DNA of 25,018 nt, taken from UHGV virus genome UHGV-1360762; one strand, written 5' to 3'. Numbering within the stretch: the stretch's first letter is position 1; each line of letters starts with the position of its first letter. The translations under genes were made by a program, and so were the position numbers. Below are positions 59 through 8,931 of this stretch, piece after piece. The notes beneath the pieces were generated by a model. The model was not told the origin of the DNA, searched no databases, and worked only from the letters and a program-made list of their open reading frames with translations. The DNA comes from a virus.

Positions 59-300
59 TGCTCTGTTACAGGTCACTAATACCATCTAAGTGGTTGATTC
101 ATAGTGACTGGATATGTTGTGTTTTGTAGCATTATGTAGTCTATTTTTTAGACTACAGGTGCTGTAACACATTGATATTAATGGTTTTTAATGTTTCACG
201 TTCAGCTTTTTTATACTAAGTTGGCATTATAAAAAAGCATTGCTTATCAATTTGTTGCAACGAACAGGTCACTATCAGTCAAAATAAAATCATTATTTGA
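55..300. other. attP: attP attachment site, lambda type, with P arm, 15-bp core GCTTTTTTATACTAA (205-219) and P' arm
   Basis: Core and right arm read as lambda attP (GCTTTTTTATACTAAGTTGGCATTATAAAAAAGCATTGCTTATCAATTTGTTGCAACGAACAGGTCACTATCAGTCAAAATAAAATCATTATTTG). Arm-type Int sites CAGGTCACTAAT (69-80), ATAGTGACTGG (101-111), CAGGTCACTAT (266-276). Confidence 0.9.
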
Positions 301-1363
301 TTTCAATTTTGTCCCACTCCCTGCCTCTGTCATCACGATACTGTGATGCCATGGTGTCCGACTTATGCCCGAGAAGATGTTGAGCAAACTTATCGCTTAT
401 CTGCTTCTCATAGAGTCTTGCAGACAAACTGCGCAACTCGTGAAAGGTAGGCGGATCCCCTTCGAAGGAAAGACCTGATGCTTTTCGTGCGCGCATAAAA
501 TACCTTGATACTGTGCCGGATGAAAGCGGTTCACGACGAGTAGATGCAATTATGGTTTCTCCGCCAAGAATCTCTTTGCATTTATCAAGTGTTTCCTTCA
601 TTGATATCCCGAGAGCATCAACATGCAATGTTGTAGGGATGGCAATTTTTACACCTGTTTTGCTTTGCTCGACATAAAGATATCCATCTACGATATCAGA
701 CCACTTCATTTCGCATAAATCACCAACTCGCTGCCCGGTAACAACAGCCAGTTCCATTGCAAGTCTGAGCCAACATGGTGATGATTCTGCTGCTTGATAA
801 ATTTTCAGGTATTCGTCAGCCGTAAGTCTTGATCTCCTTACCTCTGATTTTGCAGCGCGAGTGGCAGCGACCGGGTTTATTGTTATATGGCCTTCAGCTA
901 TTGCCTCTCGGAATGCATCGCTCAGTGTTGATCTGATTAACTTGGCTGACGCCGCCTTGCCCTCGTCTATGTATCCATTGAGCATTGCCGCAATTTCTTT
1001 TGTGGTGATGTCTTCAAGTGGAACATCAGGTAGCCCCCTCCTTATTGCTTTAATTTTGCTCATGTAATTTATGAGTGTCTTCTGCTTGATTCCTCTGCTG
1101 GCGAGGATTTTTTCGTAGCGATCAAGCCATGAATGTAACGTAACAGAATTATCACTGTTGATTCTCGCTGTCAGAGGCTTGTGTTTGTGTCCTGAAAATA
1201 ACTCAATGTTGGCCTGTATAGCTTCAGTGATTGCGATTCGCCTGTCTCGTCCTAATCCAAACTCTTTACCCGTCCTTGGGTCCCTGTAGCAGTAATATCC
1301 ATTGTTTCTTATATAAAGGTTAGGGGGTAAATCCCGGCGCTCATGACTTCGCCTTCTTCCCAT
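293..1363 (-). CDS. int: Tyrosine integrase, lambda Int
   Basis: 356-aa ORF near-identical to recalled lambda Int (MGRRRSHERRDLPPNLYIRNNGYYCYRDPRTGKEFGLGRDRR...), adjacent to attP. Confidence 0.97.
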   Translation of the reverse strand: MGRRRSHERRDLPPNLYIRNNGYYCYRDPRTGKEFGLGRDRRIAITEAIQANIELFSGHKHKPLTARINSDNSVTLHSWLDRYEKILASRGIKQKTLINYMSKIKAIRRGLPDVPLEDITTKEIAAMLNGYIDEGKAASAKLIRSTLSDAFREAIAEGHITINPVAATRAAKSEVRRSRLTADEYLKIYQAAESSPCWLRLAMELAVVTGQRVGDLCEMKWSDIVDGYLYVEQSKTGVKIAIPTTLHVDALGISMKETLDKCKEILGGETIIASTRREPLSSGTVSRYFMRARKASGLSFEGDPPTFHELRSLSARLYEKQISDKFAQHLLGHKSDTMASQYRDDRGREWDKIEIK

Positions 1364-1559
1364 TTCTGATCCTCTTCAAAAGGCTACCTGTTACTGGTCG
1401 ATTTAAGTCAACCTTTACCGCTGATTCGTGGAACAGATACTCTCTTCCATCCTTAACCGGAGGAGGGAATATCCTGCATTCGCGCACCCATCGACGAACT
1501 GTTTCAAGGCTTCTTGGGCGTCGCTGGCGTGCGTTCCACTCCTGAAGTGTCAAGTACAT
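1341..1559 (-). CDS. xis: Excisionase, lambda Xis
   Basis: 72-aa ORF MYLTLQEWNARQRRPRSLETVRRWVRECRIFPPPVKDGREYLFHESAVKVDL... matches lambda Xis; overlaps int start as in lambda. Confidence 0.95.
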   Translation of the reverse strand: MYLTLQEWNARQRRPRSLETVRRWVRECRIFPPPVKDGREYLFHESAVKVDLNRPVTGSLLKRIRNGKKAKS

Positions 1560-1664
1560 CGCAAAGTCTCCGCAATTACACGCAAGAAAAGCCGCATTGA
1601 TGCGGCAATGGTAGGTCTGGATATCTTGAGAAATGAACGGGCCTCATCGAGTGTGAGGCTGTGG

Positions 1665-2009
1665 TTAGTCCTTGCGTAACTCGCTAATTCTTCTGTAAGT
1701 CTCTGGTGCTTTGTTTCCGTGTATCTTCATTTCAGACTTCAACAGAGCAACGAGGGAATCCCATTCGGTGAGGATGCCTTTGAATGCCGGAACGCGCTTT
1801 GCAACCTTGTCGAATGAATCTCTGATTTCTGGGATCTGCTCAACCAGTGCAACGCATCGTCGGAAATCGGCTGCGTCATGTGGAGCGCCGAAGTGATGAC
1901 CATAGATATTCTTTTTCAGTCCACATGCGATTGAGGCAAGAGTTGCGCTACTGATGCCGACATCGCCAGTCGATTGCCATTTCAAAACCTTCATAGCCAA
2001 ATCTGACAT
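1665..2009 (-). CDS. Hypothetical protein (114 aa), first accessory gene after xis
   Basis: ORF with GGAG 7 nt upstream of ATG; position equivalent to lambda ea/b2-proximal accessory genes. No family recognised. Confidence 0.6.
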   Translation of the reverse strand: MSDLAMKVLKWQSTGDVGISSATLASIACGLKKNIYGHHFGAPHDAADFRRCVALVEQIPEIRDSFDKVAKRVPAFKGILTEWDSLVALLKSEMKIHGNKAPETYRRISELRKD

Positions 2010-2023
2010 TTCTTGTCTCCAAT

Positions 2024-2047
2024 AAAAAAACCGCCATCAGGCGGTTT
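2024..2047 (-). terminator. Rho-independent terminator-like hairpin (CCGCCTGATGGCGG + T7) on the leftward strand
   Basis: Plus strand AAAAAAACCGCCATCAGGCGGTTT; on the minus strand this is a GC stem followed by TTTTTTT. Confidence 0.55.
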
Positions 2048-2204
2048 GGTGTTCTTTCAGTTCTTCAATTCGAATATTGGTTACGTCTGCATGCGCTATC
2101 TGCGCCCATATCATCCAGTGGTCATAGCAGTCATTGATGTTCTCTGCTTCGATAACTCTGTTGAATGGTTCTCCATTCCATTCACCTGTAACTCGGAAGT
2201 GCAT
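2037..2204 (-). CDS. Small hypothetical ORF (55 aa, MHFRVTGEWNGEPFNRVIEAENINDCYDHWMIWAQIAHADVTNIRIEELKEHQTA)
   Basis: Not in the supplied track (under 60 aa). GGAG 7 nt upstream of ATG; fills the 267-bp gap in a leftward operon; stop lies in the terminator stem. Confidence 0.35.
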   Translation of the reverse strand: MHFRVTGEWNGEPFNRVIEAENINDCYDHWMIWAQIAHADVTNIRIEELKEHQTA

Positions 2205-2276
2205 TTATCATCTCCATAAAACAAAACTCGCCGTAGCGAGTTCAGATAAAAGAAATCCCCGCGAGTGCGAGGATTG

Positions 2277-2561
2277 TTATTCATTGTCGATATTTACCTT
2301 TATCGCGAACACCTTTACCGGTTTATCACCGAAGTGCGGATGTGTGATTGTCTTGATTTCATATCCGTCATACGGGACGTCAATTCTGCGGCTGGAATCG
2401 TCGCGCTTCGGATATCCCTTTGTGATAATCAGGCGGTCATACTCGCGGAACATAATTCGCTTATTCCAGTAGTCATTACACAAGCGATACTCTTCCGTTT
2501 TCTCTCCGCGAATCATGGCATCGAAGTATTCACTTTTAACAGCAAGTTGCAGGTTAGCCAT
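2277..2561 (-). CDS. ASCH-like domain protein (94 aa from MANLQ...)
   Basis: GxKxxExR-type motif (GEKTEEYR) typical of ASCH/DUF3850-like folds. Start chosen at the second ATG, preceded by GGAGGTGAGGTA and overlapping the upstream stop (TAATG). Confidence 0.55.
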   Translation of the reverse strand: MANLQLAVKSEYFDAMIRGEKTEEYRLCNDYWNKRIMFREYDRLIITKGYPKRDDSSRRIDVPYDGYEIKTITHPHFGDKPVKVFAIKVNIDNE

Positions 2562-2821
2562 TACCTCACCTCCAGTCTCCATACCGCCTGACCAATCCGG
2601 CTGGCATGGGTATCTTTGGATACTGTTCCGTCTTTAGCAAGCTCCATAAGAATTTTGCGCAAATCTGCCGAACGCCATTCTTCATCAGGAAATTCCTTCT
2701 CCATTGCCAACCGCAGATTCCAGGTTGCCATCCTGAATGGATATTCCCCGCCGAGAGCTTTATCTTGCAGGGCAGCCCGGGAACGCATCACCTGCAAAAC
2801 CTTCTCTTTTACATCCATCAT
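2561..2821 (-). CDS. Hypothetical protein (86 aa from MMDVKEK...)
   Basis: Start preceded by GGAGGCGAA; ATGA overlap with the upstream gene stop. The long ORF in the track (2561..2965) overlaps the neighbouring gene, so the internal start is preferred. Confidence 0.5.
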   Translation of the reverse strand: MMDVKEKVLQVMRSRAALQDKALGGEYPFRMATWNLRLAMEKEFPDEEWRSADLRKILMELAKDGTVSKDTHASRIGQAVWRLEVR

Positions 2822-3660
2822 TTCGCCTCCTGCGGCGGTTCTGGTAGCGGCATCCAGAACAAGGCGTTCCCTAACCACGATAAAGTGCCGTCGCTCAACT
2901 CCACGTATTCCCCTTGTACCTGTCCTGCCATATACTCGCCGTGCTTTGAATAAATTAAAATCCAATCATCTTGAGGGGGCATTCGCTCACTACAGCTTAT
3001 CCAACCATCCGGAGTTACCGGAGAGTTGCCTGCCAGTCTACGCAAAACAGCCTTAACAGCCTCAATACGGTCATCATCGTAACTTTCCGCCGTATCTATG
3101 CGGTCGAGCATGATGATTGCGTTATCAATATCAGGATTGCCGGTCCACTCATTACCGCGATTGGATTCGGCAGCCTGGTTGCCGCGTACTGGTTGATTGT
3201 CGGCTTTACCCAGTCTGTCGTCGCTGCATGAATGCCCTTCCAGCCAGGCCAATGCTTGTCGCATGAAATACGCAATATGTTTGCCGTGGTAATCGTCTTC
3301 ATCGATGTGAAAAGCGATACTACGAATGTATTCAATTGCGTTTTCAATGGCCTCTAACGCTATCGGCGCTGGCGGAGTGGTATATAGTTTTCGGCATTTG
3401 TTTATCCAACCGGCATGGTCAGGCGTGTCTGTAAAGCGCAAATCGTCTTCGTAGCCCTCACGACTACGTTCTTTCCATTCCGTCCACGGAACACCGCTAT
3501 TCCAGGTGGGGCGAGTGCAGGACTGATACAGAACAGGCTCTGCTTCCAGCGATGCCAGTGCGATTTCATAAGCCCGACGCTCAATATTGTCTCGAACGTC
3601 CAGGCTGCCTATGCGCTCTTTGATTTCTTTAATTAGTTCTTTGTCGGTGAACGTTGTCAT
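2818..3660 (-). CDS. Ea22-like / DUF551-containing phage protein (280 aa)
   Basis: C-terminal region DGWISCSERMPPQDDWILIYSK...LSWLGNALFWMPLPEPP resembles the DUF551 signature of lambdoid early-left proteins. Confidence 0.6.
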   Translation of the reverse strand: MTTFTDKELIKEIKERIGSLDVRDNIERRAYEIALASLEAEPVLYQSCTRPTWNSGVPWTEWKERSREGYEDDLRFTDTPDHAGWINKCRKLYTTPPAPIALEAIENAIEYIRSIAFHIDEDDYHGKHIAYFMRQALAWLEGHSCSDDRLGKADNQPVRGNQAAESNRGNEWTGNPDIDNAIIMLDRIDTAESYDDDRIEAVKAVLRRLAGNSPVTPDGWISCSERMPPQDDWILIYSKHGEYMAGQVQGEYVELSDGTLSWLGNALFWMPLPEPPQEAK

Positions 3661-3663
3661 GTG

Positions 3664-3951
3664 TTAGTCCTCATCCACTTCAACGCCATCTTTCAGCGTG
3701 ATGCCGTGCCAATCATCAGCCCAACTGGTTAGCCCTGGCGCATCAATGCTAGGCATATAAACGCTTGCAGTGTGGTAGCCCTTATCGTTATCAATGCTGG
3801 CAACGTGCTCGCCGTTGTATGCGCTCAGCGTGTCCAGGACGCTATAAAACTTTCCTCCGGCTGCCCTGAAATCCTTTACAGCCTTCACAAGGCGATTCCA
3901 CGCTTTTTCCTGTTCTGGCGTCAGGTCGATTAATTCCTGCAAAGTTGCCAT
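3664..3951 (-). CDS. Hypothetical acidic protein (95 aa)
   Basis: ORF tightly packed in the leftward operon; no recognised family. Confidence 0.5.
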   Translation of the reverse strand: MATLQELIDLTPEQEKAWNRLVKAVKDFRAAGGKFYSVLDTLSAYNGEHVASIDNDKGYHTASVYMPSIDAPGLTSWADDWHGITLKDGVEVDED

Positions 3952-3952
3952 A

Positions 3953-4441
3953 TCACTCTCCTTTGATGCGAATGCCTGCGGCGCGGATTGCAGCGATGAC
4001 TTCAGAAACTTTGTATGCCATTACCGTTTGGTAATCATCGTGAAAATCTGTTCGATGAAGCATGCTGCTACGTTCCGGGAGCAGTATTTCCCGTGCTTCC
4101 AGTTCTGCAATGCGCTTCTCTGCGGCTTCCAGCTCAACTCTCAGCTTCCCTACCGTTAGCGCAATATCTTCGTTCTCCTGGTCGCGGCGTTTGATGTACT
4201 GCTGGTTTCTTTCCCGTTCATCCAGCAGCGCCTGCACTACTTCAGGGTTGAAAGCTGCGATATAATGGGCGTTGTTCTCTGCGTTTTTCTGTCCATCAAA
4301 GCCGGTCCATTTGATAACGTCTTCACATCGTTCATCACCGGGCGTATGCACCGCATACGTACCAGTACCAGACGAAATAAATGCGACCCATTCGCCCTGT
4401 GTTGCTAACTCACGCAGTGCCTGATAGTCAATCTTGCTCAC
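3953..4441 (-). CDS. Ead/Ea22-like family protein (162 aa)
   Basis: Segment ALLDERERNQQYIKRRDQENEDIALTVGKLRVELEAAEKRIAELE and C-terminal AGIRIKGE resemble recalled lambda Ea22; ATGA overlap with the upstream gene. Confidence 0.65.
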   Translation of the reverse strand: MSKIDYQALRELATQGEWVAFISSGTGTYAVHTPGDERCEDVIKWTGFDGQKNAENNAHYIAAFNPEVVQALLDERERNQQYIKRRDQENEDIALTVGKLRVELEAAEKRIAELEAREILLPERSSMLHRTDFHDDYQTVMAYKVSEVIAAIRAAGIRIKGE

Positions 4442-4980
4442 TGGATGACTCCTTTACGAAGCTGTTCAGCAATACTTACGCATATCTCTGCGCCTCTAAT
4501 CAGCCCCGGAACGTTCTTGTTTGGCCCAACTTCACCATCAACAAAATCAATCATCGCGTTACGAGCCATATCCACCCCCTGCGCCCGCACTTCAGACAGG
4601 AAAGCATCGGTGGCTGGCATATTTCCTGTTGCCTTCATTGCCTCCAAAATAACCAGAACGCCATCTCGCCCAACCAACTCGGAGATAACCTCAGTGTTGT
4701 CGCCAACAACATCGCAGAATGCCTGAACTGCTTTACGAGCCAGCTCACTCTCCGCCGCCAGCACCGAAAACTTCTCGTGTGCCAACTTAACAGCCGAATC
4801 AGCCTGCTTAATTGACTCAATCGCTCTCTGCTGGTCTTCGGACAGAGCTGAAATTTTGGCCTCCGCTTCAGCAAATTTACGCACCAGATATTCTGCGTTT
4901 GTTTCGTTAACCTTTAAATCACTTGGGATGCATTTACCTTTCAGAAAACCATCCATCTCAATTAGTGACATTTGTTTCAT
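4438..4980 (-). CDS. Hypothetical protein with predicted N-terminal coiled coil (180 aa)
   Basis: ORF in operon context; no recognised family. Confidence 0.5.
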
Positions 4981-5159
4981 TTCTTCCCACTCCGCAACAT
5001 CGCATTCAGATACTTGTTTTGATTCACTGATGGAAAAGAATTTCTCTTAAGTAATTCCTCTCTCGATGGCATTGGCTTTACGCGTTGGCGAATAATCATT
5101 TCTGCCGGAAGAATGCCGGGATTGTATGCAAGTCCTCTCATGGTAAATTCCTCAGTCAT
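4977..5159 (-). CDS. Small hypothetical protein (about 54-60 aa)
   Basis: The 104-aa track ORF overlaps the upstream gene by 140 bp. Internal starts at 5159 (MTEEF) or 5141 (MRGLAY, preceded by GAGGAA) avoid the overlap. Confidence 0.4.
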
Positions 5160-5445
5160 TACTGATAGCGCCATAGCGTGAGCGGTAATTACGCAGGCGC
5201 GGGTCAATTTCAGGGAAGTGGGTATATGTGGCTTTGCGGAATGGTCGGATTGATGTCTGGTAAATTCGCTCGCGTTCTTCTTTCTCTGCAAGCCATATAC
5301 AGTGGCGAAATTCCTTTTCCTCTTTCGTTTCCTGCGGTAGCGACATTATCCGATCGTAGTTTTTTCTGAATTTATCCAGCACCTCCGATACGGAATTGCC
5401 GGAACAGCGGCGCGGGTCATCCGCACCATACAGAGGCGCTGGCAT
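5152..5445 (-). CDS. Hypothetical protein (97 aa)
   Basis: ORF in operon context; no recognised family. Confidence 0.5.
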
Positions 5446-5461
5446 GTTTTTCTCCTGTTGA

Positions 5462-6010
5462 TTATTTAGCTAACTTTTTCCAGATCGCTGAAACGTATTT
5501 GGCTTGGTGAATGGCATCATCAAGAGCGTTGTGGCGAGTTCCTTTGAATGGCATATCTCGCTTAGGGTCGAATCCTATTGCCTTCCCAAGTTCGACGATT
5601 GTTCTTACGTCGCGGTCATTCCACCACTGCCACGGAACTGGCTGCCCTGTCAGCGAATAACTGTTGCGGAGAATAACGCAGTCAAATGATGCTCCATTCC
5701 CCCAAACCTGAACGAATTTGTGGTTAGCGTTCTTTATGATGAATTCAGATAACCATGAAAGAGCCGTTGAAAGCTCCTGAGTGTTGCTGGTTAGCGATTT
5801 CCTGGCTTCTTCACTCTGTTCCAGCCACCATAAAATCGTTGAAGCGTCAGGACGCGCTCGATATCGCATTGATGATTCAAGCGAGATATTTACCGAGAAC
5901 TCTTCTCCTGTTTCTCCGGTATTCGGGTCAAAGAATACCGCCCCAATAGAAATAACTGGCGCGTATGGCCCGTTGCCCATTGTTTCAAGGTCAACCATCA
6001 AGTGATTCAT
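5462..6010 (-). CDS. DEDDh-type (DnaQ-like) 3'-5' exonuclease (182 aa)
   Basis: N-terminal DLETMG (Exo I motif) and C-terminal HNALDDA (Exo III motif with catalytic His) in a protein of typical DnaQ-like size. Confidence 0.7.
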   Translation of the reverse strand: MNHLMVDLETMGNGPYAPVISIGAVFFDPNTGETGEEFSVNISLESSMRYRARPDASTILWWLEQSEEARKSLTSNTQELSTALSWLSEFIIKNANHKFVQVWGNGASFDCVILRNSYSLTGQPVPWQWWNDRDVRTIVELGKAIGFDPKRDMPFKGTRHNALDDAIHQAKYVSAIWKKLAK

Positions 6011-6018
6011 GTAAGTCC

Positions 6019-6498
6019 TTAAATTGCGTGAATAGCGTGACGAGGGAAGGGGAGAGTTACTGGCTCCTCGTCTGGGTAGATAGGTTTGTTATGTTTGTGC
6101 CACTCGACATGACATGACTTGCAGAGCCACATCACATCGGTTGGTTTGCTGTAGTCGCAGTGGTGCGCCTGTGGTTTACATTCTGATCCGCAGCACTCAC
6201 ATTGTGGTGGTCGGATTAGCTTACCGTCGCGCAAAAAATTACCCACGATGATGTGGGCTTTTCTTTTCCATGGGTTGCTCTGAATGAACCGCTTTTTGGC
6301 TGCGTTACACCGTTCTCTGCCGCGTTCCGATGATTGATATTCTCTCCTTGCTGATACTCGATGTGGCAATCCCGCGCGCTCTTTGTCATATTCAGCCAGG
6401 CAAGCCCGGCAAGCGGCAGTTAATCCATCTCTGGATGCTCTTCTGATTTGAAAGTCCCTTTCTTCCTTCTGTTGATGGCATCTTGAGCAGATTTTCAT
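6019..6498 (-). CDS. Zinc-finger protein with C-terminal HNH-like motif (159 aa)
   Basis: Paired Cys clusters (CSRCH...CRAC; CECCGSEC...HHCDYSKP...WLCKSCHVEWH) consistent with a zinc ribbon plus HNH-like nuclease fold. Confidence 0.5.
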   Translation of the reverse strand: MKICSRCHQQKEERDFQIRRASRDGLTAACRACLAEYDKERAGLPHRVSARREYQSSERGRERCNAAKKRFIQSNPWKRKAHIIVGNFLRDGKLIRPPQCECCGSECKPQAHHCDYSKPTDVMWLCKSCHVEWHKHNKPIYPDEEPVTLPFPRHAIHAI

Positions 6499-6507
6499 AT
6501 TCAGCTC

Positions 6508-6981
6508 CTAGAACGGAATATCCGAATCGTCGAAGTTCATAGGTGGTTCGCTGTGATTTCCATGCTGCTGAGGTTGCTGTCTTTGTTGATGACCATTATT
6601 TCGCTGAGGTGAAGACTGTTCATTGCCTCCTTGCTTGCCACCAAGCATTTGCATGGTTCCACCAACGCCCACGATGACTTCGGTAGTGAACCGATCCTGT
6701 CCGCTTTGATCCTGCCATTTTCTTGTCCGCAACTTGCCTTCAAGATAAACCTCAGAGCCTTTTCGCAGATATTCGCTGGCAATTTCTGCCAGTTTCCCGC
6801 TCATTACCACGCGGTGCCACTCCGTCTGCTCCTTTTGCTCTCCAGTTTGCTTATCACGCCATTGTTCTGACGTAGCAACTGTAAGGTTTGCAAATGCCGT
6901 TCCTGATGGTGAATATCTGATTTCTGGATCATGCCCAAGGCGACCAATAATGATCACCTTATTTACGCCTCTGCTTGCCAT
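6508..6981 (-). CDS. ssb: Single-stranded DNA-binding protein
   Basis: OB-fold N-terminus ([17 protein letters not shown]...), Gly/Gln-rich linker and the canonical acidic tail DDSDIPF. Confidence 0.92.
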
Positions 6982-7689
6982 TTATGCCGCCTGTTTTAGT
7001 TCGTTAACTCTGATGTTCATTACCTGAACGCATTTAGCCTGCGCTTCCTCGTTGCCAGCCATTAATTGCCAGTCACGCTGATAACGCTCGATGAGTTTTT
7101 TCTTGTCAGTTTCTGTTGACGCATAATCGCTGAAGTCTTTCAGGATTTGTTCGCAGTCAACCGATGGAGATTTCTGGTTGGTATTTTCTGGTGATGGTTT
7201 GTTATCTGATGCTGGGATTGCCCAGCCCGGCAGCGATGGAGGGAGCCAGTAAAATCCTGTTCCATCCTTGAGTTTTGCCCTGTGCCATCCCTGCTTTTTG
7301 TCGAGAGATGTTTGTGCGAAACCTTCCTCAAGGTTATACAGATACCGACCGATTCCCCACTGAACGGCAGCACGCTTCATTGCACCGGAACGACCACCTT
7401 TGACGGCTTCTACCTGCGTGTTTTCAGCAGCATCCCATTTGGTTACCCATTCGGAATCAATCTTGATTGATATGCCGCATTCAACTCCGCCGTTGTTGGG
7501 AATATCGCGGTATTCATTGCGCCATCCTGCTTTGCCGCAAACATCGTCCAGGCGTTTCATGATTGCCCTGTTCGTGACATAAGCCAGCACCATAGCCCAC
7601 ACCTTTCCATCGCGTGTTTTACCGCTTTGCTGTATTCGCCATTCGATATCTTCAGGGCTGAATGGCTCATCGAATTTGTTCAAATCCAT
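6982..7689 (-). CDS. Single-strand annealing protein: Rad52/Sak-like N-terminal domain with P22 Erf-like C-terminal tail
   Basis: C-terminus DFSDYASTETDKKKLIERYQRDWQLMAGNEEAQAKCVQVMNIRVNELK matches recalled P22 Erf C-terminus. N-terminal half (FSPEDIEW..., GGRSGAMKRAAVQWGIGRYLY) looks Rad52-like rather than Erf-like. Confidence 0.8.
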   Translation of the reverse strand: MDLNKFDEPFSPEDIEWRIQQSGKTRDGKVWAMVLAYVTNRAIMKRLDDVCGKAGWRNEYRDIPNNGGVECGISIKIDSEWVTKWDAAENTQVEAVKGGRSGAMKRAAVQWGIGRYLYNLEEGFAQTSLDKKQGWHRAKLKDGTGFYWLPPSLPGWAIPASDNKPSPENTNQKSPSVDCEQILKDFSDYASTETDKKKLIERYQRDWQLMAGNEEAQAKCVQVMNIRVNELKQAA

Positions 7690-7697
7690 AATTCACC

Positions 7698-7886
7698 TCA
7701 GAATGGTAATTCGGATGGGGAGGAAAGAAATTCGCGCTCATTCATGCGCTCTCTTTGTGCTTGCCATAAACAAAGTTGTTTCTTTGATTTATCTCCCGCT
7801 TTACGCCAGTAACGAGCCTCAGCAATGTGATACTCTCTTTTTAATCGACTTAACTCTGGGGTTTTCGCCAGTTCTACCGTAATCAT
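7698..7886 (-). CDS. Small hypothetical protein (62 aa from MITVELAK...)
   Basis: GGAGG 5 nt upstream of the second ATG; lies between the annealing protein gene and kil. Confidence 0.45.
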   Translation of the reverse strand: MITVELAKTPELSRLKREYHIAEARYWRKAGDKSKKQLCLWQAQRERMNEREFLSSPSELPF

Positions 7887-7996
7887 TTTGACCTCCATTT
7901 CCTGTAGGCTTCGACAGCCTCACGAAACATCTTTTCATCGCCAATAAAAGTGGCGATAGCGAATTTAGTCTGGATAGCCATAAGTGTTTTATCCAT
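7883..7996 (-). CDS. kil: Kil (host killing / FtsZ inhibitor), lambda-like
   Basis: MDKTLMAIQTKFAIATFIGDEKMFREAVEAYRKW matches recalled lambda Kil N-terminus. Confidence 0.8.
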   Translation of the reverse strand: MDKTLMAIQTKFAIATFIGDEKMFREAVEAYRKWRSK

Positions 7997-8129
7997 TTTT
8001 TGGAACTCCTGGCTGATTAAGTACGTCGATGAGTCGTTTCCATCCGTCACGTAATTTACGGGTGATTCGTTCAAGTAAAGATTCGGAAGGGCAGCCAGCA
8101 ACAGGCCACCCTGCAATGGCATATTGCAT
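7989..8129 (-). CDS. cIII: cIII (FtsH inhibitor stabilising cII), lambda-like
   Basis: MQYAIAGWPVAGCPSESLLERITRKLRDGWKRLIDVLNQPGVPKNG is near-identical to recalled lambda cIII. Confidence 0.88.
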   Translation of the reverse strand: MQYAIAGWPVAGCPSESLLERITRKLRDGWKRLIDVLNQPGVPKNG

Positions 8130-8190
8130 GGTGTACTCCTTATTTATACATAACGAAAAACGCCTCGAGTGAAGCGTTATTGGTATGCAT

Positions 8191-8352: not shown

Positions 8353-8553
8353 TCAGGCAGCTTTGTTGTTCTGTTTACCAAGTTCTCTGGCAATCATTGC
8401 CGTCGTTCGTATTGCCCATTTATCGACATATTTCCCATCTTCCATTACAGGAAACATTTCTTCAGGCTTAACCATGCATTCCGATTGCAGCTTGCATCCA
8501 TTGCATCGCTTGAATTGTCCACACCATTGATTTGTATCAATAGTCGTAGTCAT
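8353..8553 (-). CDS. ral: Ral (restriction alleviation), lambda-like
   Basis: 66-aa MTTTIDTNQWCGQFKRCNGCKLQSECMVKPEEMFPVMEDGKYVDKWAIRTTAMIARELGKQNNKAA matches recalled lambda Ral in length and sequence. Confidence 0.8.
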   Translation of the reverse strand: MTTTIDTNQWCGQFKRCNGCKLQSECMVKPEEMFPVMEDGKYVDKWAIRTTAMIARELGKQNNKAA

Positions 8554-8631: not shown

Positions 8632-8931
8632 TCAAATAAGTGGTTTGCTGCCTAATTTCATTTTCTGGCGACCAACACAAGTCACCCCCATTTCACTGCG
8701 TGGCTTGCGGTAGTAAATACGGTTCTGTTTACGCTCGACTTCATCTGCCTTCTTGCAGAGAAGGCTTCCGAGTGATGCTGCTTTGTCTGCTCTGACGCAA
8801 CCAGAGAGCTTTAGCGCAATTTTTCGCGCCAGTCGCTGCTCTTGCATCGCCTGTTCACGTTGAGCCTGTCTGCGTGCTCTGCGGCGATTTCTGGCGTTAT
8901 CGTCAGCCAGATATGTAATGACTACTGTCAT
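8632..8931 (-). CDS. N: N-type transcription antiterminator with arginine-rich motif (phage-21-like)
   Basis: ARM NARNRRRARRQAQREQ near the N-terminus; C-terminal half resembles recalled phage 21 N (…KPRSEMGVTCVGRQK.KLGSKPLI); first gene downstream of pL/nutL; GGAGGT RBS. Confidence 0.85.
   Translation of the reverse strand: MTVVITYLADDNARNRRRARRQAQREQAMQEQRLARKIALKLSGCVRADKAASLGSLLCKKADEVERKQNRIYYRKPRSEMGVTCVGRQKMKLGSKPLI

Follow-up and report, generated by a model that had tools for sequence, protein, structure and literature searches.

Positions 1665–6498 of the virus genome UHGV-1360762, analysed as one strand of 25,018 nucleotides (nt) (the window), carry 12 small genes packed tightly on the minus strand. 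Together they very probably constitute the standard early-left accessory region, termed "exo-xis" or "ea", of a P22-like/lambdoid prophage of the CUS-3/HK620 type, in which the genes lying outside recombination would encode non-essential, soluble proteins that modulate the host or the phage. Judged from its sequence, the region is of an already known kind, assembled from already sequenced modules, and represents another permutation of the lambdoid exo-xis mosaic. The stretch running from the recombination genes to xis is the "exo-xis region" of the literature, under study for more than 10 years (PMC8614690, PMC10834534). Published work on it deals with lysogenisation and induction, with Ea22, Orf63 and related genes displaying phenotypes in the lysis-lysogeny decision. 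As a whole the region is of little consequence, every piece of it being already present in sequenced phages.

The region lies on the strand of the pL operon, bounded by xis on one side and by the general-recombination genes on the other, with the minus-strand order, from low to high coordinates, being int, xis, the 12 genes, ssb, a Rad52-like gene, kil/cIII, ral and an N-like gene. The top overall matches of the source genome are CUS-3, HK620-type and other P22-like/Lederbergvirus-like E. coli phages, at 95–98% identity. All 12 genes are ~95% or more identical to genes in existing phage records, no single one of which covers more than 49% of the window. Each product has a PHROG family match (E 1e-37 to 1e-66), so the 12 open reading frames (ORFs) are real, conserved genes and not chance. 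All 12 are intact and preceded by good Shine-Dalgarno sequences, and all 12 proteins are predicted to be soluble.

An initial annotation had presented this stretch as an accessory island of about ten genes. It is no newly noticed island but a long-described region, its left end 97% identical to the phage 434 record, and the gene count rises to 12, a gene for a protein of 95 amino acids (aa) at 3664–3951 having been left off the list. Every ORF that was named exists on the minus strand at the coordinates given below, each with a PHROG match. It was sound to describe a variable accessory stretch that in a lambdoid prophage extends from the recombination genes to xis, and to state that most of the proteins lack a demonstrated function and that the least explained of them are ORF114 and the 86-aa and ASCH-like proteins. 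Among three supposed unknowns, one is Abc2, one is a DUF2737 protein and the third is the 180-aa protein. When regions of this kind are annotated, automatically or by eye, Abc2, Orf55 and the ORF114 of phage 434 ought to be identified as such and not reported as unknowns. The 12 genes are as follows.

1665–2009, minus strand: ORF114 (114 aa; phrog_1229, E 1.6e-51)
2037–2204, minus strand: Orf55 (55 aa; phrog_676, E 1.5e-39)
2277–2561, minus strand: ASCH-like protein (94 aa; phrog_625, E 2.6e-51; start at 2561 preceded by a GGAGGTGA Shine-Dalgarno sequence)
2561–2821, minus strand: 86-aa "eaa protein"
2818–3660, minus strand: DUF551 protein (280 aa; Pfam DUF551, E 2.6e-10, C-terminal residues 219–277)
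3664–3951, minus strand: 95-aa protein (phrog_2821, E 6.9e-66; acidic, net charge -9)
3953–4441, minus strand: Ead/Ea22-like protein (162 aa, GTG start; Pfam PF13935, E 4.9e-33, 115.1 bits against a cut-off of 27)
4438–4980, minus strand: 180-aa protein (phrog_614, E 3.7e-53; also positions 86–239 of the phrog_368 profile)
4977–5141, minus strand: DUF2737 protein (54 aa, basic; Pfam PF10930, E 1.9e-31; phrog_1117)
5152–5445, minus strand: Abc2, P22-type anti-RecBCD protein (97 aa; Pfam PF11043, E 6.1e-64; phrog_656 "abc2 anti-RecBCD")
5462–6010, minus strand: DEDDh 3'-5' exonuclease, Rv2179c-like (182 aa; Pfam PF16473, E 6.9e-74, 247.8 bits)
6019–6498, minus strand: cysteine-rich putative HNH-type endonuclease with an N-terminal zinc ribbon (159 aa; phrog_2340 "endonuclease", E 2.6e-47)

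Exchange of single genes at gene boundaries

Comparison with related genomes resolves the region, at the level of sequence, into a mosaic of single-gene modules that are swapped independently at gene boundaries, with no co-evolving system. Coverage of positions 1560–6600 in one place stays below 80% in every phage record and every complete E. coli genome, and pieces of the island are present in 4,047 of 5,426 complete E. coli genomes. Breakpoints were located in 80 IMG/VR contigs carrying the ASCH-like gene at 96–98% identity. Upstream, homology ends at the start codon of that gene (~2560) in 67 of the 80 contigs and extends into the 86-aa gene in the other 13; downstream, it ends at 2200–2280 in 41 contigs and at ~2020 in 29. 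As the 2200–2280 and ~2020 positions are the hairpin-bearing intergenic regions, homology blocks stop at gene boundaries. The presence or absence of the other genes among the same contigs is nearly combinatorial, and breakpoints consistent with module exchange are also found against six reference loci. Co-variation of the genes as a unit is contradicted by these breaks across the 80 contigs; being inherited singly, the genes should be tested singly and not as a block. A scan against Rfam detected no RNA family inside the island, and a repeat search no meaningful repeats there.

Positions 4867–8084 of the window form a single block, 97.7% identical to phage Bas106, which holds abc2, the exonuclease gene, the HNH gene, ssb and the annealing-protein gene. 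Since one block spans everything from abc2 to the annealing-protein gene, the right third of the region (putative HNH endonuclease, DEDDh exonuclease and Abc2) is better grouped with the recombination module. In related prophages the HNH genes vary in presence and position, variation that is expected of free-standing endonuclease genes.

The encoded proteins

Profile searches placed Abc2 and the DUF2737, DUF551, Ea22 and DEDDh proteins within families, and left ORF114 without a match to any described domain family or solved fold. The Abc2 assignment is complete, residues 1–97 aligning to positions 1–97 of the PF11043 model with 212.7 bits against a cut-off of 25. P22 Abc2 binds RecC and modifies RecBCD (Murphy 2000, as cited in PMC12373910), and by analogy with this homologue the protein would redirect RecBCD to act with the phage annealing protein. 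The DEDDh exonuclease displays the three acidic motifs Exo I, II and III with their histidine (DLET 7–10, GASFD 106–110 and HNALDD 160–165) and matches the exodeoxyribonuclease of PDB entry 8kel (E 1.5e-13). The HNH-type protein contains four CxxC pairs and an HH...CxxCH motif, with C100xxC, HH 112–113 and C126xxCH present, and has no Pfam HNH match and no PDB match. Its residues 1–69 (6019–6225, minus strand) are weakly Lar-like, resembling restriction-alleviation proteins (phrog_5558, E 7.5e-7), and at a nearby position a related E. coli prophage has a gene of the Lar family.

Two Ea22-like proteins had been proposed initially; the Ead_Ea22 domain, with both the N-terminal segment and the coiled-coil signature of the family, is present in just one of them, the 162-aa protein. 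The 280-aa DUF551 protein, which is acidic (pI 4.7), has no PF13935 match and aligns to the 162-aa protein by BLASTP with an E value of only 0.48. Similarity of the 162-aa protein to lambda Ea22 (BLASTP E 2e-24) is confined to residues 1–113, aligned with lambda Ea22 residues 1–81, and its C-terminal domain differs from that of lambda Ea22; a modular N- and C-terminal pattern of this kind has been described for Ea22 proteins (PMC10834534). From what is known of homologues, which bias lambda and Stx phages toward lysogeny, the protein may act in the same direction. The 180-aa protein is similar to longer PHROG families of the Ea22 type in their C-terminal parts and has no significant similarity to the 162-aa protein. 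For the 95-aa protein no Pfam, NCBIfam or PADLOC match was obtained.

Orf55 is lambda orf55 (lambdap35), with 54 of 55 residues identical, and is the ORF55 of the phage 434 annotation; a speculative published model pictures it as resembling T7 Gp2 (PMC8614690). The ASCH-like label of the 94-aa protein is shared by RefSeq, which names homologues "ASCH domain-containing", while the Pfam score is sub-threshold: PF04266 reaches 14.3 bits against a gathering threshold of 21.2 and covers the N-terminal 23 residues only. Among seven relatives, two give any match to PF04266 (best E 0.067), and a profile built from the seven sequences matched no solved ASCH structure among PDB sequences. An N-terminal motif, L-x-V..yFD.i..G.K.eE.R, falls on positions 1–23 of the Pfam model, as in the ASCH (PUA-like) superfamily, and one relative weakly matches DUF3850 of the same clan; membership is thus plausible on sequence grounds. 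Homologues with 51–79% identity are encoded by virulent Jersey-type Salmonella phages, Drexlerviridae, Klebsiella, Pantoea and Ralstonia phages and a jumbo phage of 270 kilobases (kb). With homologues in strictly virulent phages, a lysogeny-specific role of the ASCH-like protein is unlikely.

The 86-aa protein is most likely, on the strength of its predicted structure, a small nucleic-acid-binding or adaptor domain. Its AlphaFold2 model is very confident (predicted local distance difference test, pLDDT, 93.2) and combines a bundle of three helices with a beta-hairpin wing, in agreement with winged-helix domains of solved structure. Sequence identity to these (Cdc6/ORC winged helix, MarR/ArsR/Fur-type, Z-alpha, STIV F93) is only 6–19%, and the protein stands alone, without a dimerisation or sensor part. 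The family spans the Enterobacteriaceae at 58–100% identity with an invariant SRIGQ-VW wing segment. This segment and the conserved basic residues R37, R55, K56, K69 and R75 are compatible with DNA or RNA binding, which is not proof of it. No sequence family membership was found for the 86-aa protein. A TPR-like match from a single-sequence PDB search was set aside, covering a 29-residue stretch and passing no per-stretch threshold. Single-sequence PDB searches with ORF114 and the ASCH-like, 86-aa, HNH, DUF551 and Ea22 proteins gave chance-level matches only.

Judged by its model and its relatives, ORF114 is the sole item of wider interest in the region, being a member of a very large family with a confident predicted fold that has no solved counterpart. 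It is 96.5% identical to the ORF114 of phage 434, in the same slot between ORF55 and xis. Close relatives are confined to Enterobacteriaceae. Among 1.84 billion representatives searched with phmmer, 1,843 clusters of relatives (counted at 50% identity) were recovered at E ≤1e-3, and 181 at ≤1e-10. Relatives are encoded by phages that infect Vibrio, Klebsiella, Mannheimia, Gordonia, Arthrobacter and Clavibacter, including virulent ones in the case of Vibrio, Klebsiella, Gordonia and Arthrobacter, and are found in genomes or metagenome-assembled genomes (MAGs) of Bacteroidota, Chloroflexi, Acidobacteria, Actinobacteria, Patescibacteria, Desulfobacterales and a Methanoperedens MAG. They are also present in 109 Pseudomonas plasmid records, those listed measuring roughly 250 kb to 1.2 Mb (megabases). 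PHROGs lists the families as "unknown function". In Pfam no match was obtained for ORF114, 46 long relatives or 50 short relatives, even at E values up to 1; NCBIfam and PADLOC gave none for ORF114, and a literature search found nothing relevant to it.

Five AlphaFold2 models of ORF114 agree on a compact, seven-helix, all-alpha domain (pLDDT 91.9–94.3; predicted template-modelling score, pTM, 0.88). The model matched no PDB fold, the profile reached a best E of 0.82 against PDB sequences, and matches in BFVD were exclusively to uncharacterised relatives. Over 40–50 family sequences at about 30–40% identity, W11, G18, S20, S21, P43, D45, D48, R51, C52 and W83 are invariant. An enzymatic role was considered on account of invariant S20, S21, D45, D48, R51 and C52 and is weakened by the model, in which G18/S20/S21, D45/D48, P60 and W83 are located at helix N-termini, in capping-type positions. 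Conservation of these polar residues may therefore be structural and not catalytic.

Around relatives of ORF114 in 14 genomes of many phyla, three metagenomic contigs and one Pseudomonas megaplasmid, no fixed partner gene was found. The neighbours are generic to early phage regions and mobile genetic elements: Mu Gam, GemA, orphan DNA methyltransferases, SSB, RadC and Rad52, and further dUTPase, MazG-like, PAPS reductase and HNH genes. On the Pseudomonas aeruginosa plasmid p243931-IMP (NZ_MN208062.1, 392 kb; locus interval 5995–7757), the family gene lies directly upstream of a same-strand gene for a site-specific DNA methyltransferase, with a second N6 methylase 3.5 kb beyond and an integrase/helix-turn-helix pair upstream. 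A 260-kb ENA metagenome contig encodes a DnaG-type primase, Rad52, DUF7007, TSCPD, SSB, a distant ORF114 relative and RadC, and onward from RadC a DUF6094 methyltransferase and a helicase, a gene set that calls to mind those regions of conjugative elements known as establishment or "leading" regions.

Domain fusions were equally uninformative as to partner, the extensions holding no Pfam domains. Protein P0197 (333 aa) contains two tandem ORF114 domains, and other relatives, e.g. P0336/P0331/P0351 and P0207/P0210, bear unrelated N- or C-terminal extensions of 90–170 residues with no Pfam domain. Chimeric database proteins also exist in which a partial ORF114 (92–99% identity) is fused to pieces of Erf, Kil, Ea22 or a dATP/dGTP-pyrophosphohydrolase (PF04447), for example P0015, P0017, P0029, P0036, P0050, P0052 and P0312; they resemble deletion or recombination junctions in E. 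coli prophages. The Ea22-ORF114 fusions among them (P0029, P0312) were not used as functional evidence, being singletons of 96–99% identity with the look of deletion chimeras.

The best guess, held with low confidence, is that ORF114 is a stand-alone binding domain for a conserved host or nucleic-acid target, acting early in infection. More ambitiously, and only tentatively, this pan-phylum family of ~110-residue all-alpha proteins could represent a new early effector of phages and mobile genetic elements directed at a universally conserved host or nucleic-acid target; its carriers comprise temperate and virulent phages, prophages of Proteobacteria, Bacteroidota, Chloroflexi, Acidobacteria, Actinobacteria and Patescibacteria, an archaeal MAG and Pseudomonas megaplasmids. 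Once its function is defined, thousands of phage and plasmid genes would be annotated together, and in view of their very confident models structural and pull-down studies of ORF114 and the 86-aa protein would be cheap. Given how often orphan DNA methyltransferases and Gam-type nuclease inhibitors adjoin its relatives, a counter-defence function of ORF114 is possible.

Extended to the whole block, this last idea would make the region a dedicated counter-defence (anti-immunity) island in which most of the unknown genes each disable a host defence system, a reading we regard as unlikely. Silas and colleagues reportedly screened such accessory regions for counter-defence. Variable regions of this type have been treated as anti-defence hotspots (bioRxiv 10.1101/2023.04.06.535777), and here Abc2 (anti-RecBCD) lies inside the block with Ral (anti-restriction) and Kil just upstream, while related E. 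coli prophages hold a Lar-family restriction-alleviation gene at the corresponding position. However, Abc2 alone matches a known anti-defence family, and beyond it none of the anti-defence functions initially envisaged is shown; a PADLOC scan of ten of the proteins returned a trivial DEDDh match and no meaningful defence model, and an NCBIfam scan gave no match. Relatives of ORF114 across phyla do adjoin orphan DNA methyltransferases, Mu Gam-type nuclease inhibitors and MazG-like genes, but this association is weak, such genes being common in phage early regions and no partner being recurrent. The 95-aa and 280-aa proteins are acidic like DNA mimics, yet acidity alone is no evidence of mimicry, and the phenotypes of Ea22, Orf63 and related exo-xis genes concern lysis-lysogeny, not defence. 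Counter-defence is therefore possible for individual genes and unsupported as a property of the block.

Transcription and terminators

The surroundings of the region also speak for the standard exo-xis reading; the following elements are found there.

293–1363, minus strand: int
1341–1559, minus strand: xis
6508–6981, minus strand: ssb
6982–7689, minus strand: Rad52/Erf-like annealing-protein gene
8084–8142, minus strand: cIII thermoregulator RNA (Rfam Lambda_thermo, 84.2 bits, E 2.3e-19)
8353–8553, minus strand: Ral antirestriction protein (full-length Pfam match, E 1.7e-48)
8632–8931, minus strand: N-peptide antiterminator (weak match)

A Kil domain forms the C-terminus of a 79-aa ORF at 7883–8122, so that kil and cIII overlap in a manner much like that of lambda. 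Ral, a known anti-restriction protein, is encoded upstream in the operon, beyond 1665–6498.

Translational coupling, which had been ascribed to the whole stack of genes, is partial. Three 4-nt overlaps (ATGA at 2818–2821, ATGA at 4977–4980 and GTGA at 4438–4441) and a 1-nt TAATG overlap at 2561 bear it out, while the remaining junctions of the upstream block are gaps of 1–16 nt and the three xis-proximal junctions are gaps of 72, 27 and 105 nt, which hold the hairpins. Between 1300 and 7000 there are 11 terminator-like sites, compared with 5.4 ± 2.3 in shuffled sequences. Five hairpins on the coding strand, with folding energies of -8.6 to -13.1 kcal/mol, are located at the xis-proximal junctions.

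2275–2254, minus strand: hairpin, -13.1 kcal/mol, z -5.5, at the junction of the ASCH-like gene and Orf55; equals t-L4 of the phage 434 record
2243–2224, minus strand: hairpin, -11.9 kcal/mol, in tandem with 2275–2254
2047–2028, minus strand: intrinsic-terminator-like hairpin, -13.0 kcal/mol, z -3.7, followed by a U7 tract
1659–1641, minus strand: weaker hairpin with a poor T-tract, -8.6 kcal/mol, z -2.8, just past the ORF114 stop codon
1606–1591, minus strand: hairpin, -10.3 kcal/mol, GCCGCATCAATGCGGC followed by TTTTCTTG, at the ORF114/xis junction

The stop codon of Orf55 falls inside the loop of hairpin 2047–2028, with the start of ORF114 18 nt farther on. Hairpin 1606–1591 equals t'-I of phage 434, as mapped from the M60848.1 annotation through a 97% alignment. 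ORF114 is bracketed by terminator-like hairpins on both sides, in line with its initial description as terminator-isolated.

By analogy with lambda, the region would be transcribed leftward as part of the pL operon, after N, ral, cIII, kil and the Rad52-like and SSB genes and before xis and int, with N-modified RNA polymerase at work early in infection or after induction. Polymerase that is not antiterminated would be halted by the tandem terminators ahead of Orf55 and by those around ORF114, in which case Orf55, ORF114, xis and int would be expressed from pL in an N-dependent mode only. We infer this early N-dependent transcription from the terminators and from the N homologue encoded upstream of the region. 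A simple scan for sigma-70-like promoters in 1300–7000 found none except one inside ssb.

The same hairpins could alternatively mark Orf55 and ORF114 as "morons", autonomous promoter-terminator cassettes expressed from the repressed prophage to the benefit of the lysogen, which we consider improbable. Each gene is indeed followed by a terminator-like hairpin of its own (2047–2028 and 1606–1591), two tandem terminators divide the pair from the upstream operon, and the gaps of 72, 27 and 105 nt far exceed those elsewhere in the operon; moreover, phage 434 and this prophage both have ORF114 and lambda does not, as for an inserted cassette. A promoter of their own was nevertheless not detected, the consensus scan, itself insensitive, giving no sigma-70-like site near 2009–2290. 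The gap between Orf55 and ORF114 is only 27 nt, mostly hairpin and Shine-Dalgarno sequence, and relatives of ORF114 occur in virulent phages, where lysogenic conversion would be senseless.

Several points weigh against the standard reading of the region as a pL-driven set of modulating genes. Seven of the 12 proteins have no demonstrated function anywhere, and "host-modulating" is a category and not a mechanism. The ASCH membership of the 94-aa protein is below threshold, and N-dependent readthrough is carried over from lambda biology. The simple promoter scan, which detected no sigma-70 site near Orf55 or ORF114 (2009–2290), would miss weak or non-canonical promoters, leaving expression in the prophage state possible. 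That the small ORFs are decaying, non-functional filler of a cryptic prophage is hardly credible: databases do contain many ORF114 fragments that are truncated or joined in chimeras to parts of Erf, Kil, Ea22 or MazZ-like proteins, and related prophages hold frameshifted copies of neighbouring genes, but here 12 of 12 ORFs are intact with good Shine-Dalgarno sequences, their identity to genes of plaque-forming phages such as CUS-3, HK022, 434, Bas106 and HK620 is ~95% or more, and the ORF114 and 86-aa families are deep, with invariant residues and very confident fold predictions.

Comparison with P22, lambda and phage 434

The ea region of P22 and HK022 shares with this prophage a full-length Abc2, a DUF2737 protein encoded directly downstream and proteins of the Ead/Ea22 and DUF551 families. 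It differs in that here the DEDDh exonuclease and HNH genes lie between abc2 and ssb, that no abc1 homologue was detected here, and that the annealing protein is Rad52-like and not P22 Erf.

With the exo-xis regions of lambda and Stx phages the region has in common its position on the pL operon between xis and the recombination genes, and its style of small, mostly uncharacterised ORFs. Orf55 (98% identical) and the N-terminal and coiled-coil module of Ea22 are common to lambda and this window, whereas lambda ea8.5, orf61, orf63, orf60a and orf73 are lacking. In their place are ORF114, the ASCH-like protein, the 86-aa winged helix and the DUF551, 95-aa, 180-aa and DUF2737 proteins. The recombination module is of the P22 type (Rad52/Erf-like protein, SSB and Abc2) and not the Exo/Bet/Gam of lambda. 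In lambda, orf55 directly adjoins xis, while in phage 434 and this prophage ORF114 is inserted between the two.

Phage 434 (M60848.1, int-xis-ORF114-ORF55) provides the closest counterpart of the left end, positions 10–2286 of the window being 97.06% identical over 2,279 base pairs, with the same gene order and the same annotated terminators t-L4 and t'-I. The likeness ends upstream of t-L4, where phage 434 harbours an Ea22-type ORF ("ORF-22+") and here the ASCH-like gene abuts the terminator.

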